Positions 14,105 through 56,692 of a stretch of 64,000 nucleotides of DNA are shown here, in pieces. The position numbers and the translations under genes are program-made. The notes under the pieces are model-generated. The model did no database searches and was not told the origin of the DNA. It worked only from the letters and a program-made list of their open reading frames with translations. The stretch's first letter is position 1, and every line of letters begins with the position of its first letter. Origin of the DNA: a bacterium (lineage in GTDB: Bacteria; Bacillota_I; Bacilli_A; RFN20; CAG-826); contig CAVIJK010000004.1 of the NCBI GenBank assembly GCA_963643345.1, positions 310 through 64,309 on the forward strand. Reading direction: 5' to 3'.

Positions 14105-14350
14105 TATTGCCAGGCTATGAAGGAAACAGAGTAGCGAGCACATAATCTTCTTTAGAGAGAATCCGGTTGGTGCAAGGATTAGAAGACGTGTTTGTGAATT
14201 ACATTCCGGAGCTGCTTAATGCCGGGGCCGCCCGATACAGCGGACGTCTGACCACCATAGGTTAGATACTAAGGAGTTAGGTGCGAACCTAACTTAAATT
14301 GAGGTGGTAACACGAGAAATTCGTCCTCTACATTAGGGGACGTTTTATTT
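14105..14350 (+). promoter_or_regulatory. T-box leader, Tyr (UAC) specifier, upstream of tyrS
   Basis: AGAGA box (~14153). GTGAA-TAC-A specifier context (TAC at 14200-14202). T-box sequence AATTGAGGTGGTAACACGAG (~14297-14316). Terminator CGTCCTC...GGGGACG (14322-14342) plus a T-run. Confidence 0.85.
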
Positions 14351-26541: not shown

Positions 26542-26699
26542 ATAATTAAGCCTCTTTTTAACGTCGAGATTATATCATCCGGACAAATACAGTCACTAAA
26601 AATAGGTGAAAACATTTTCATCTCAACTTTTTTAAAAATCATTACAAATTTTGCTTGCCTTTATTCGATATGGTGTTTAAATATGCCCAACGACATCGA

Positions 26700-26953
26700 A
26701 GAGGAAGAGTAGTCTCCACTTGCGTCTAAAGAGAGTCCCAGCAGCTGTGAAGGGATGACGAAACAGAGATGAACATGGCCTCGGAGTTGGCAGGGTGATA
26801 TGTAATCCTGTCCGGGGGAGCCCGTTAAAGCGAAAGAGTATGTTAGTACTCGATGAGGTCTAATCTAGTGATAGGTTGGATGAACTAAGGTGGTAACACG
26901 GGAATTTCTGTCTCGTCCTTAACAAGATTATTTTGTTAGGACGAGACTTTTTA
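26700..26953 (+). promoter_or_regulatory. T-box leader, Met (AUG) specifier, upstream of metNIQ
   Basis: AGAGAG box (~26731). GAAC-ATG-G specifier context (ATG 26775-26777). T-box sequence ACTAAGGTGGTAACACGGG (~26885-26903). Strong terminator GTCTCGTCCTTAACA...TGTTAGGACGAGAC (26910-26947) plus T5. Confidence 0.85.
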
Positions 26954-37072: not shown

Positions 37073-37474
37073 GGGGCCGTTCCGGTTTTGACGGGGGGTC
37101 TGTCCGGCCTTGGTTGCAGCGGCGTGATGAGCCATAACATCAAAAAAACAATAACTGACAACAATTCAGTAAAACCTTGGATGCTTGGTGCAAACCACGC
37201 AGCCTTCGCTCGCGCTTAATCTAGCCTCGATATAGAGCCCGCCTTTTGCGGGGGAGCAAGTCATACCACCATTTCTCGTCTATTGGCGGATATGGCTTAA
37301 TATCAAGACGATAAGCCTTGGCCATTGTTCGGTGACCTAGGACGAAAACCTTACGAACGCCGTCAGAGGAAGACCGATCTTGCCGAGCCTCTGATGTACA
37401 GGGCAAGACCTAAGCTGTAGACGCCACCGTTGGGGGTCCTTCGGACAGGGGTTCGATTCCCCTCGACTCCACCA
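37073..37474 (+). ncRNA. ssrA: tmRNA (SsrA), ~402 nt
   Basis: 5' GGGGCCGTTCCGGTTTTGACGGGG pairs with the 3' tRNA-like end GGACAGGGGTTCGATTCCCCTCGACTCCACCA. The internal tag frame 37157-37219 reads GAC AAC AAT ... GCT CGC GCT TAA, giving (A)DNNSVKPWMLGANHAAFARA. The resume codon was placed by analogy to the B. subtilis AAUAACU context. Confidence 0.93.
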
Positions 37475-53702: not shown

Positions 53703-54875
53703 ATGGAACACGCATTAAAAGATAACGCATTAACCGTTACACTACACGGCCGAATCGATACAGTCACCTCTCCCGATGTTGAAAAGGAACTATCCTCAAT
53801 TCTATCTAAAAGCAAATTCACAGCTCTTATATTGGATTTAGCGGATGTTGATTTCGTCTCATCAGCGGGATTGCGTATTTTTCTGCGCACTAAACAAACC
53901 CATGACAACCTCTCCATAATTAATGTCAAACAAGAGGTATATGAAGTGTTTGAGATGACCGGTTTTACCGAGATTATGGACGTTGAGAAAGCCTATCGGC
54001 AATTCTCCATTGAAGGGTGCGAGGTGATTGGCAAAGGGGCTGTTGGAACCGTTTATAGATATTCTGACGACACGATTGTTAAAGTCTTTAGTGAAGACAC
54101 TAGCCTCGAAGAGATTAAACGTGAGATAGACATCTCTCATAAGGCTTTCATTTTGGGCATTCCTACCGCTATTTCTTATGATGTTGTTAAGGTTGGAGGC
54201 TCATTTGGAACAGTGTATGAGCTGCTTAATTGCGAGACGATGAAAGGCTTAATCCTTAAAGACCAACAACATCTTGGCAAATACGCGAAGATGTATTCAG
54301 ACGTTCTTCACGCATTGCACAAGAGCAAAGTGGAACCGGGAGAGTTGCCAAGCGTCAGAGAACACGACTTGAAAGTCGCTAAGATCGTGGCTCCGCTATT
54401 ACCAGAAAAAGAATCCCATAAATATTTGAAAATGGTTAATGAAATACCTGATGATTACAATGTTTGTCATGGTGATTGCCATATCAAAAACATCATGGTT
54501 CAAAACGGCGAGCCATTGTTCATCGATATGGAAACCTTAAGTTATGGCAATCCTGTATTCGACTTTTCTAGAGCGTATAACACATATTTCGGATATACCG
54601 AACTCTTAAATCAACAAGACGACATGTTTATCGGGCTTCCATATGACACGGTAAAAGAATTTTGGAAACTTACCCTGATGGAATACTTCAAAACTAAAGA
54701 CCCCGTAAGAATAGAACAGCTTGAGAATAAGTTCGCCTTGCTTGGAAATGCATATTTGCTCTACAAAGTCACAACACTTCCTGATTTCGCCAATAAGGCC
54801 GGAGAAGAAAAAATCGAGTGGTTGAAGAAAACAATCTGCGAAGAGATAGATAAAGCGGACAATCTCTTACTTTAA
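53703..54875 (+). CDS. STAS (anti-sigma antagonist-like) domain fused to an APH/choline-kinase-like protein kinase-fold domain
   Basis: 390 aa. The N-terminal ~95 aa are RsbV/SpoIIAA-like, with a conserved phospho-acceptor context DFVSSAGLRIF (Ser53, nt 53859-53861). The C-terminal domain has a Gly-rich loop IGKGAVGTVY, VKVF Lys, Brenner motif HGDCHIKNIMV and FIDMETLSYGNPVFDF. Confidence 0.85.
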   Translation: MEHALKDNALTVTLHGRIDTVTSPDVEKELSSILSKSKFTALILDLADVDFVSSAGLRIFLRTKQTHDNLSIINVKQEVYEVFEMTGFTEIMDVEKAYRQFSIEGCEVIGKGAVGTVYRYSDDTIVKVFSEDTSLEEIKREIDISHKAFILGIPTAISYDVVKVGGSFGTVYELLNCETMKGLILKDQQHLGKYAKMYSDVLHALHKSKVEPGELPSVREHDLKVAKIVAPLLPEKESHKYLKMVNEIPDDYNVCHGDCHIKNIMVQNGEPLFIDMETLSYGNPVFDFSRAYNTYFGYTELLNQQDDMFIGLPYDTVKEFWKLTLMEYFKTKDPVRIEQLENKFALLGNAYLLYKVTTLPDFANKAGEEKIEWLKKTICEEIDKADNLLL

Positions 54876-55062
54876 TTTGAAATAGTCAGTAACAAGGATG
54901 GCAGGAGTATGTCCAATCACGAAAACAGGCGATTAATTGTAGTTTTTTAAATGTTTTTGCTTAAGACAAAAAAATCCGGAGGCATCCGCCGAAGGAAGGA
55001 TGTCTACCACACTTGAGGCTTGCGCCCTTATGTGGCTAGGTTATAATTAAATTGTTCTTTTT

Positions 55063-55097
55063 GGTCCTCCCAGTTTGCGCTGAGAGGAACCTTTTTA
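55063..55097 (+). terminator. Plus-strand terminator abutting the stop codon of the convergent small ORF
   Basis: GGTCCTC (55063-55069) pairs with GAGGAACC (55084-91, one bulge), then T5 (55092-55096). It is the first terminator downstream of the STAS-kinase gene, which has a 220-nt tail. Confidence 0.7.
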
Positions 55098-55157
55098 TTT
55101 CAACAATCTAACTACTATCGTGATAAGCAACACGGCCGCAATCGCGACTAGCAGCAT
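55095..55157 (-). CDS. Candidate 20-aa hydrophobic peptide MLLVAIAAVLLITIVVRLLK (type I toxin-like)
   Basis: ATG 55157 is preceded by the purine-rich GGAAAGGGGAAAGGG. A single TM-length hydrophobic helix ends in RLLK. It stands alone in a 690-bp non-coding gap. It forms the last 20 codons of the implausible 117-aa ORF in the track. Confidence 0.4.
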   Translation of the reverse strand: MLLVAIAAVLLITIVVRLLK

Positions 55158-55561
55158 ATCCGACCCTTTCCCCTTTCCGGCGGATGGCGATTGTAGAGCG
55201 CATAGATGATGCCCTCCACTAATATATAGATGAGTTTTTCTGGATTTTTCCCAAAATCGTATTCTTTTGCTAAAAATCGTTATTTTTCGGTACAACGACC
55301 ATTCTAAAAATAATTGAACAAAGAAATCTAAAAACAATGTCTTAAATGAAAAAGCAATTCTAAATTGAATTTGAGTATTAAAAAATAGATGTTTATTTAT
55401 GCATGATATTGCCTTTGATTGCTTTTGTTTATCACTAACAAAGACCATTAATCACGGAACGTTGAAAAGTAAGAAATACTTTTAGTGCTTCCATTTTTCT
55501 TTGTATAACTCGCTCGTTTAGTGTATTGTTTGTTTGCTAAAAAGCAAAAGAGAATATCGAT

Positions 55562-56692
55562 ATGTCAAACACAAGAAAAATTAAAGCAAAGAAAGTGAGC
55601 CAGCCAAAGAAGACAAGTGCCTGGTCAAAAATTTGGTCTGGAACGAAATATTTCCTCAAATCATTATTCAGCAATGACGTATGCGTCGATGCTAGAACAA
55701 AAAAATGGTACTGGGCGATTCTCATCGCCGTGGTATCTCTAGTTGTCGCAACTATCCCGACCATGGTCAACTATTTCAAGGTTAAAGGCGGAAGCTTCCT
55801 CGACAGCACAACCTACAACTATGATTCGCAAATCTACGCATTCACTCAGGATATGGAAGCCAACGGAATAAAACTCAAAGTTGAAAACGGAACATTGGTT
55901 GACGAAGGCAACACATGCAAAGTTGACGATTCCAACATCATCTACAAACACATTGTCTCAATGGATGTAGTCTATAAGGACAGCACATCGGGCGAGATTG
56001 TTTCAACAACAGACAAATACGTTGATTTCGCAGTCTACTTCTACCCGGATGCTGTCTACTCAAAGAAAAAGAGCGACACAACCCACACAAGACTCTCTGA
56101 TTTAGTAACCAATGTTATAGGTGGCAAAAACCCTAAGGCAGATAACGAGGAAATCGGCGAGAAATACACAATCAACGCCCTTTTCTTGGGAAAAGAGTCA
56201 TTCACCGCCGTCAAGTACACCGGAATAAGCTCTTCAGGTTCTGTCTCTAGATCTTCTATCACCTATAAGTATCAAGGCGCAAACCAGAATGGCGATACAA
56301 CCTTCTACCTTAAAGATTTATTGGGTACTGATAAGGCCGCAACCGTCAGCAATTGGAAGGTTTATCTCAATAACGCTTACATGCCAATCAAATTAGCAAC
56401 TGGTTGGGCATCAACCGGAATCACATTCGGTATCTACACAGCATTAACAATCCTTTTGGGATTCGTCGTCTGGATCATGACAAGAGGCAAGAACAATCCA
56501 TTCCGCATCTACACTTTCTGGGAATGTCAAAAGATTGCCTATTGGGCGGCACTAACTCCTGCCATCATCGGAATGTTAATCGGATTCTTCATGTCCAGCA
56601 TGGTCATGTTGGGATTCATCCTCTGCTATGGCGTGAGAATCATGTGGATGTCCATGAGGTCCTTAAGACCATATCAGGACGAACAGAAATAA
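55562..56692 (+). CDS. Membrane protein of unknown function (basic N-terminus, TM, ~220-aa extracytoplasmic domain, 3 C-terminal TM helices)
   Basis: 376-aa uninterrupted ORF with a clear TM pattern and a terminator immediately downstream. No motif recognised. Confidence 0.75.
   Translation: MSNTRKIKAKKVSQPKKTSAWSKIWSGTKYFLKSLFSNDVCVDARTKKWYWAILIAVVSLVVATIPTMVNYFKVKGGSFLDSTTYNYDSQIYAFTQDMEANGIKLKVENGTLVDEGNTCKVDDSNIIYKHIVSMDVVYKDSTSGEIVSTTDKYVDFAVYFYPDAVYSKKKSDTTHTRLSDLVTNVIGGKNPKADNEEIGEKYTINALFLGKESFTAVKYTGISSSGSVSRSSITYKYQGANQNGDTTFYLKDLLGTDKAATVSNWKVYLNNAYMPIKLATGWASTGITFGIYTALTILLGFVVWIMTRGKNNPFRIYTFWECQKIAYWAALTPAIIGMLIGFFMSSMVMLGFILCYGVRIMWMSMRSLRPYQDEQK

Follow-up and report, generated by a model that had tools for sequence, protein, structure and literature searches.

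A multicopy, probable type I toxin-antitoxin-like family with a covarying toxin mRNA fold and a shared com-box-like promoter motif in the CAG-826 lineage

Introduction

Type I toxin-antitoxin (TA) loci are hard to detect by homology, and their families are catalogued in T1TAdb (PMC8594479). In the Gram-positive families the antisense RNA is placed at the toxin mRNA's 3' side (PMC8594479), an arrangement exemplified by TxpA/RatA, BsrG/SR4, BsrE/SR5, and YonT/SR6 of Bacillus subtilis, in which transcription is convergent and the overlap involves the 3' end of the toxin transcript. Toxins of this type are 30-59 amino acids (aa) in length, their antitoxin RNAs measure 180-220 nt, and the loci are single copies on prophage-like elements. 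RNase III decay of the duplex is the expected route of control (PMC3531473; PMC8594479). This article describes a locus of comparable design in a 64,000-nt stretch of DNA (hereafter the window) from a bacterium of the CAG-826 lineage (Bacillota_I; assembly GCA_963643345.1, contig CAVIJK010000004.1, positions 310 to 64,309 of the forward strand), where a gene for a 20-aa hydrophobic peptide (55095-55157, minus strand) is opposed by a predicted antisense RNA gene. The locus is probably one copy of a multicopy type I TA-like family; systems of this kind are already known, and the toxin/antisense family itself is, as judged from the absence of any Pfam or Rfam match, new.

Several other described systems share features with this locus. 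The par locus of pAD1 (Fst/RNAII) and its chromosomal Fst-like counterparts combine a small hydrophobic toxin with an antitoxin RNA that is convergent and short (~65 nt) and with a hairpin-terminator at the junction, which in par is bidirectional and ends both RNAs; the two RNAs also pair via 5' direct repeats over the ribosome-binding site (RBS). The proteobacterial Ibs/Sib pairs of Escherichia coli encode very short (18-19 aa), fully hydrophobic peptides in multiple cognate copies, with an antisense RNA wholly within the mRNA and paralogues that diverge in their recognition elements; Sib (~140 nt) covers the entire open reading frame (ORF) and the RBS. In the Gram-negative hok/Sok and AapA1/IsoA1 systems, a 5'-3' interaction and sequestration of the Shine-Dalgarno (SD) sequence by a CU-rich segment leave the full-length mRNA translationally inert (PMC6733600; PMC9841398); the antisense RNA acts at the 5'/RBS side of a 3'-processed mRNA. 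Other toxins are placed under the promoter element of a DNA-damage or DNA-uptake regulon, as with the LexA-dependent, SOS-controlled TisB/IstR-1 and DinQ/AgrB and with toxTA of Haemophilus influenzae, a single-copy type II (protein-protein) pair that is competence-regulated (PMC6957337). The competence programme of Staphylococcus aureus likewise induces putative TA systems (PMC10182052).

The Putative Toxin Gene and Its Coding Character

The toxin ORF of the window, which runs on the minus strand from an ATG at 55157 through MLLVAIAAVLLITIVVRLLK to a TAA at 55097-55095, was confirmed from the sequence. A purine-rich SD sequence, GGAAAGGGGAAAGGG, lies 6 nt upstream, and the 20-aa product is a single helix of transmembrane (TM) length with a basic C-terminus; the ORF, the purine-rich SD region, and the helix with its basic C-terminus had been recorded in a preliminary description of the stretch, and each holds. 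The gene belongs to a 282-nt unit (54975-55256, minus strand) of which the window's own genome has 11-12 copies sharing 75-95% identity, with two tandem occurrences and several at the ends of contigs. The unit constitutes an RNA family of ~248 nt, far beyond chance.

Every full-length copy, in four species, retains an ORF of 19-21 aa with its start codon, SD sequence, and stop codon; the untranslated regions (UTRs) diverge. The majority peptide pattern is M[IL]LVAIAA..(I/V)I.I.VR..(K), and a 21-aa variant is represented by MYLTFAIAVVLIITILVKMRK. Among 26 distinct coding sequences, the numbers of variable columns at the first, second, and third codon positions are 12/6/16 and the corresponding summed entropies are 10.4/2.8/18.2. 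The ratio of nonsynonymous to synonymous polymorphism (pN/pS) is 0.34 in the toxin frame, compared with values of 0.90 and 3.16 after a shift to either of the other frames. The ORF is genuinely coding, and purifying selection acts on it solely in the toxin frame.

Two longer readings of the gene were rejected. A 31-aa ORF beginning 11 codons upstream would need an in-frame TTG or ATG that is found in few copies and not in that of the window. A degraded sortase sorting signal (…SPSAGKGKGSD, a TM segment, and a basic tail) has no coding sequence upstream, and it was dismissed because its 'PSAG' is the long-distance helix of the toxin mRNA, described below, read as codons. The toxin frame is open from stop to stop for 117 codons (55095-55448, minus strand), the upstream part being AT-rich non-coding DNA; gene callers could predict a spurious 117-aa protein there and overlook the 20-aa gene.

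Distribution of the Family

A BLASTN search of the unit against 40 relatives gave no match outside its own genome. A covariance model was needed to detect copies in sister species, and one was built from nine copies of the unit. Of the 78 genomes of the genus that were searched, five match the model, the window's own included: three others carry 12, 10, and 6 copies, and the two matches in the fourth are members of an analogous 28-aa family. The toxin family itself is patchy, occurring in 4 of the 78. Over 301 genomes of the order the same model found almost nothing. A shorter and broader model of 134 positions, run over 401 genomes of the family-level taxon, identified one other genus with at least six copies of a related 19-aa gene of the same layout, MQYLLVLVIILLVICLLVK, and gave a single weak match in a further genus. 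The related gene (genome G330, at L096:1501-1693 (+), L097:389-583 (-), and L098:1501-1716 (-)) has the post-stop hairpin and the antisense TATAAT of the window family and a different upstream region. Copy numbers from these large multi-genome searches, which scored no more than 8 candidates in each genome, are lower bounds, and the E-values of such self-built models are rough. A gapped pattern scan of named genomes returned mostly chance matches, in GC-rich genomes; the sole true match was in Faecalibacillus sp. H07605-L1_cleanbin_000015 (Erysipelotrichales, Coprobacillaceae), referred to below as G073. At C35:7665-7748(+) the window's own genome retains a toxin-gene relic, MLPVAIATTIVISIPVKLWETIAI, which is degenerate and has no promoter.

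Plasmid and phage collections contained nothing similar to the unit, which leaves a mobile-element origin unsupported. Four variants of the peptide matched no Pfam family at E <= 1. In Rfam, a search of the entire window at the gathering threshold found no family for the element, and a search at E <= 10 over 54800-55620 also found none, the top entry, L10_leader, reaching 23 bits where the gathering score is 44. At the gathering threshold the window contains, elsewhere, only a tmRNA gene and two T-box leaders (37073-37474, 14108-14331, and 26687-26923, all on the plus strand).

Predicted Folding of the Toxin mRNA

The minus-strand RNA of the unit is unusually structured when compared with shuffled sequences (z = -5.97, vs. 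-1.24 for the plus strand). RNAalifold analysis of the paralogues recovered four elements, namely a 5'-terminal hairpin, a long-distance helix, a long hairpin that comprises the 3' end of the ORF, the post-stop hairpin, and the segment that follows it, and a GCAA-capped 3' hairpin. All are given here by their minus-strand positions in the window. The 5'-terminal stem-loop occupies 55193-55219 (helix 1), and 9 of its 10 pairs show double changes, with 92.9% of cells paired. In the long-distance helix, a 5' strand (GCCAUCCGCCGGAAAGGGGA, 55169-55188) that runs into the purine-rich SD region (55164-55178) pairs with a 3' strand (UCCUUCCUUCGGCGGAUGCC, 54981-55000; paralogue identity 0.97) that includes a CU-rich anti-SD sequence, and the pairing of 55188-55169 with 55000-54981 continues into that of the purine-rich SD with the CU-rich 3' segment. 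The post-stop hairpin (55063-55091; helix 9), which is the predicted antisense target and has no U-tract on this strand, has nine pairs that all covary, with 95% of cells paired. The 3'-UTR hairpin (55007-55035), closed by the GCAA tetraloop, contains the covarying helices 10 and 11, and its complement bears the -35 element of the antisense promoter.

When 30 distinct sequences were aligned to the model, double-sided changes were seen in 58 of the 73 pairs, and 90.4% of cells were paired, compared with 37-45% when partners were slid by 1-3 columns; the covariation score was 0.357, vs. 0.05-0.08 in the slid controls. The 12-pair long-distance helix was 98% paired, with every pair covarying. As this alignment had been fitted to the model, the test was repeated on a plain MAFFT alignment of 21 sequences, from which RNAalifold again returned the long-distance helix, with 11 pairs, of which 8 are compensated, and only two broken cells.

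Conservation of the family stops at GGAUGCCUCC (54978). Immediately after the unit lies a tract of seven U residues (54968-54974, minus strand), which could be a terminator tail and which had been proposed, together with a weak hairpin, as the minus-strand terminator. The tract is present, at 54974-54968 and behind a weak hairpin, but belongs to this copy only, being found neither in the other copies nor in the syntenic orthologue of G073.

A Predicted Dedicated Antisense RNA

A promoter is predicted from conservation on the strand opposite the toxin 3' UTR (55020-55047, plus strand), with a -35 element TTGCGC (55020-55025), a 16-nt spacer, and a -10 element TATAAT (55042-55047). It would give rise to an antisense, putatively antitoxin, RNA of ~45 nt (55054-55100), made up of a single-stranded 5' tail, a hairpin (55063-55091; free energy, dG, -14.0 kcal/mol), and, overlapping the toxin stop codon, a T-run (55092-55100). 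The plus-strand rho-independent terminator that had been placed on the peptide's stop codon in the preliminary description is present as this hairpin and T-run. A TATAAT-type hexamer occurs at the homologous opposite-strand site in 31 of 31 copies (TATAGT once and TATACT once), and all 30 distinct copies from five genomes have a TTG upstream of it, the distance being 16 nt in 22 copies and 17 nt in 8; the sequence of the spacer has nevertheless diverged. All 31 copies also have a hairpin ~15 nt downstream of the hexamer (dG -9 to -18 kcal/mol) and a T-run at the stop codon, and the predicted antisense RNA ranges across copies from 32 to 48 nt.

Complementarity of the predicted RNA to the toxin mRNA is perfect over the stop codon, the hairpin that follows it, and a further ~15 nt. 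On the mRNA strand the post-stop hairpin is flanked by A-runs, which argues that it terminates the antisense RNA only, and the conserved mRNA extends ~95 nt past it to the anti-SD. Among the paralogues of one genome, identity is lowest in the segment that the antisense 5' tail would target (0.57), in the promoter spacer (0.68), and in the hairpin loop (0.69), whereas conservation is maintained in the antisense promoter hexamers (0.85-0.92) and in the long-distance helix (0.94-0.97). Such a pattern would be expected were every copy served by a cognate antisense RNA of its own.

The antisense partner had previously been considered to be either a dedicated small RNA (sRNA) or the 3' tail of the neighbouring STAS-kinase operon, which would couple the locus to a partner-switching module. 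Sequence comparison favours a dedicated RNA of ~32-48 nt over the operon tail, and coupling to partner switching is not a feature of the family. With a dedicated antisense RNA the two transcripts would overlap by ~45 nt (55054-55100) and not by the ~130 nt first estimated.

A Promoter Motif Shared With DNA Uptake and Recombination Genes

The first 38 nt of the unit (TTTTGGGAAAAATCCAGAAAAACTCATCTATATATTAG; 55219-55256, minus strand) form a com-box-like promoter motif that is also found alone elsewhere in the genome and has the form TTTTGGGAAAAAAT-N12-TCTATATATTAG; in the window the toxin transcript would start at ~55216-55220. A position weight matrix (PWM) scan identified ~26 sites in the window's own genome, separated from background by a clear gap in score. 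About 12 of these head copies of the toxin gene and 2-3 head a second toxin-like family. Of the rest, sites at plus-strand positions precede recA (C9:31392), a recX-like gene (C9:6754), dprA(-topA) (C15:16778), a gene for a 61-aa TM protein followed by radC (C17:30975), rpsF-ssb-rpsR (C19:7201), a T2SSE-ATPase operon (C12:36271), and genes for a C39-peptidase protein (C18:8839) and an ATP-binding cassette (ABC) transporter (C9:38027); a further site, with a minus-strand offset, precedes a comEA-type gene (SLBB+HHH_3; C10:-11858). The remainder belong to two sRNA-like transcripts, at C22:25356-25560(+) and C35:7882-8150(+), which are motif-driven and lack a convincing ORF; that on C22 ends in a strong terminator.

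At recA and dprA only a few nucleotides separate the end of the motif from the SD sequence, from which it follows that transcription would start at about GTGGAGGG, which is also the beginning of the toxin mRNA. Each of the four toxin-bearing species has 17-20 occurrences of the core motif, and eight other genomes of the genus have none. Orthologous sites at radC, recA, and recX are conserved in the sister species, and in three sister species the motif is conserved before the toxin copies. From the identity of the genes, the motif set looks like a late-competence regulon and is regarded as a candidate regulon. The -10-like part of the motif, TAYWWATTA, is a poor sigma-A hexamer and bears a loose likeness to the streptococcal com-box.

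The second toxin-like family, which has the same kind of promoter, encodes peptides of 28-29 aa with a hydrophobic N-terminal half and a charged tail, such as MNEVIAALLLILLTLLEPKNKRGRHYTYS (TTG start; window's own genome) and MDIASIVMILILILLIESQKNSNGRKGR (genome G044). In the own genome it is found at C51:4357(+) and C51:1450-1482(-) (6193 as minus-strand offset), with a weaker site at C51:62-109(-) (minus-strand offset 7571); in G044 its loci are L025:1501-1738 and L030:1501-1735. Members have their own 5'-3' helix and, on the opposite strand, a TATAAT and a terminator; one C51 copy has no obvious start codon.

Genomic Neighborhood of the Window Copy

The gap in which the toxin gene lies measures 686 bp, close to the ~690 bp first given. 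The plus-strand genes before it encode a SpoIIE-phosphatase/HATPase_c_2 fusion and then a STAS-APH-kinase fusion that ends at 54875; the gene beyond, which starts at 55562, encodes a 376-aa membrane protein. The 12 copies of the own genome have unrelated neighbors in either orientation, one, for example, lying downstream of groEL. The STAS-kinase gene is absent from two copy-rich sister species. G073, the sole sister species with a STAS-kinase orthologue (91% identical), has a convergent copy ~108 nt after it, and the insertion is thus taken to be ancestral to both species; with a copy in the same convergent position there, the refuting condition named at the outset, an ORF missing from or unconserved in syntenic relatives, does not hold. 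In this orthologous copy, which adjoins the STAS-kinase gene at G073:C29:18616-20139 (L101, L032), the antisense hairpin and loop have been almost wholly rewritten with compensatory changes, and the peptide differs at 2-3 residues. As far as sequence comparison can tell, either the RNA recognition region evolves fast or paralogues have been swapped.

Relation to Known Systems

Two marks of the class are found. A small (<60 aa) hydrophobic ORF with a membrane helix, judged to be coding from its pattern of substitution, accompanies a cis-encoded antisense RNA gene that is predicted in every copy and overlaps the toxin mRNA. The analogues first named, Fst, Ibs, and TxpA, stand as functional analogies, and membership by sequence was not found for any of them. 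The TxpA/BsrG-type systems are likewise Gram-positive, convergent, and overlapping at the toxin 3' end; unlike them, the present family has a peptide of 19-21 aa, an antisense RNA of ~32-48 nt wholly within the mRNA 3' UTR, and 6-12 copies, and no homology to TxpA, BsrG, BsrE, YonT, or their sRNAs was detected with Pfam or with Rfam at E <= 10 over 54800-55620. Fst/RNAII is approached in the smallness of both partners and in the junction hairpin-terminator, but here the U-tract is on the antisense strand only, the mRNA is ~95 nt longer and carries an anti-SD, and neither an Fst_toxin match in Pfam nor a bidirectional terminator is present. The family resembles Ibs/Sib in peptide size, in its multiple cognate copies, and in the divergence of recognition elements, and differs from it in having no Ibs_toxin match and in an antisense RNA that is predicted to end at the stop codon, covering only that codon and the 3' UTR.

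A hok/AapA1-type 5'-3' interaction over the translation initiation region is present in the family as a modeled occlusion. As in the TisB, DinQ, and toxTA systems, the toxin would be placed under the promoter element of a DNA-damage or DNA-uptake regulon, with the difference that in this genome type I-like toxins lie behind about half of the motif sites; a literature search found no multicopy type I family that fills half of a com-box regulon.

Alternative Explanations

The view that the locus is a type I TA-like system draws its strength from the multicopy family, the purifying selection on the peptide, the covarying fold, and the conserved antisense promoter and terminator, and the core of the preliminary description is upheld by them. 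Several observations weigh against it. The peptide has no sequence similarity to any known toxin family (Pfam, four variants), and a terminator for the toxin mRNA is not obvious in most copies. A consensus scanner called neither the antisense promoter, whose -35 TTGCGC is weak (3/6), nor the bulged terminator, its only calls being a hairpin in a coding region and a weak promoter some distance away, so that support for both elements comes from conservation. The predicted antitoxin RNA of 32-48 nt is shorter than the ~60-220 nt of known type I antitoxin RNAs, and the full covariation count derives from an alignment fitted to the model. No ComK was found in the own genome, in which the sigma factors identified are RpoD and one ECF-like factor with an adjacent anti-sigma gene only. 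Finally, cleavage of the duplex would part the ORF from the 3' anti-SD, and the sign of the regulation is therefore not self-evident.

Among other readings, the strongest is that the peptide is a non-toxic small membrane protein of a competence-like programme, for instance a modulator of a membrane complex, with a level tuned by the cis-antisense RNA. Its promoter motif is indeed common to DNA-uptake and recombination genes, another motif-driven transcript encodes the 61-aa membrane protein upstream of radC, and many small hydrophobic proteins are regulators and not toxins (PMC10730256). Such a role is nevertheless unlikely, since a set of twelve near-identical paralogues in each genome, every one accompanied by an antisense gene, a patchy distribution (4 of 78 genomes of the genus), an SD sequence elaborately occluded by a covarying long-distance helix, and divergence of paralogues in their antisense recognition elements are typical of type I toxins and not of housekeeping subunits. 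A different account would keep the toxin and make its main antisense partner the 3' tail that read-through of the convergent STAS-kinase operon would produce, coupling it to the partner-switching module. No plus-strand terminator is evident in 54876-55062, so read-through from the operon would stop at the same terminator, and the convergent STAS-kinase/toxin arrangement is conserved in G073. Against this, the terminator and a promoter of its own lie within the repeat in 31 of 31 copies and the neighbors of the other copies are unrelated, for which reason coupling to partner switching is not a family feature; two copy-rich sister species, moreover, have no STAS-kinase gene. As an explanation of the main antisense partner it is very improbable, although at this locus operon read-through into the shared terminator may supply a local extra antisense RNA without being the mechanism of the family. 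Still less credence attaches to the suggestion that the ORF is incidental and the unit a repeat that does not code for protein, for instance a structured sRNA, 6S-like RNA, or miniature inverted-repeat transposable element (MITE). The highly structured, closed rod-like fold, the multiple copies, and the position of several of them at contig ends would suit such an element, but an RNA-only, MITE, or 6S-like sequence cannot yield the three-base periodicity and pN/pS of 0.34 seen in the ORF frame only, and the reading was rejected on that ground. All full copies, whatever the species, retain the start, the stop, and the SD, and it is the UTRs that diverge; each unit contains two promoters, and neither Rfam nor the plasmid and phage collections hold a match.

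Proposed Mechanism

For the type I TA-like system that these comparisons favour, the sequence allows a working model in which we infer both transcripts, the toxicity of the peptide, repression by the antisense RNA (including its direction and decay route), and induction during competence. The promoter with the 38-nt motif would drive a ~245-nt mRNA encoding a single-helix membrane peptide of 19-21 aa. This mRNA would be born translationally closed: at full length it is predicted to fold with its 5' hairpin, an 11-12-bp 5'-3' helix, and the anti-SD laid on the SD region, and with that region paired the primary transcript should be poorly translated. From the other strand, a constitutive-looking, sigma-A-type promoter within the 3' UTR would produce the antisense RNA of ~32-48 nt. 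Pairing most likely begins at the loop or the 5' tail, and as these are the most divergent parts among the paralogues, they would give each copy its own partner. Once paired, the toxin mRNA could be degraded, with RNase III as a possible agent as in the 3'-overlapping Gram-positive systems (an RNase III gene is present in the own genome), or it could be locked in the inactive fold. Toxin would be produced only when the shared motif is induced strongly enough to outrun the antisense RNA, and the result would be membrane damage or growth arrest in cells in a competence-like state.

In its widest form this model describes a competence-triggered self-intoxication module, in which about half of the promoters of an uptake/recombination regulon drive type I toxins held in check by antisense RNAs. 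That proposal is a tentative one, and it is appreciably more doubtful than the assignment of the locus to a type I TA-like family.

Significance

A full-text literature search found no description of a type I TA system in the Erysipelotrichia, a major group of gut bacteria. The family unites features so far met separately, namely a peptide of Ibs size, a folding lock like that of hok and AapA1, and the Gram-positive arrangement of a convergent antisense RNA on the 3' side. Its predicted antitoxin RNA, at ~32-48 nt, is notably small, and its ~30 natural variants form a compact set for studies of cognate RNA-RNA specificity. The 38-nt motif delimits a candidate competence regulon in an uncultured lineage, and the distribution of its sites suggests that toxins are a large share of the output of that regulon. 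If the self-intoxication proposal is true, entry into competence in this gut Faecalibacillus-like subclade would be coupled to membrane depolarization, growth arrest, or lysis, in a manner analogous to streptococcal fratricide or to what TisB does during the SOS response, though with 20-aa peptides under RNA control as the building blocks.

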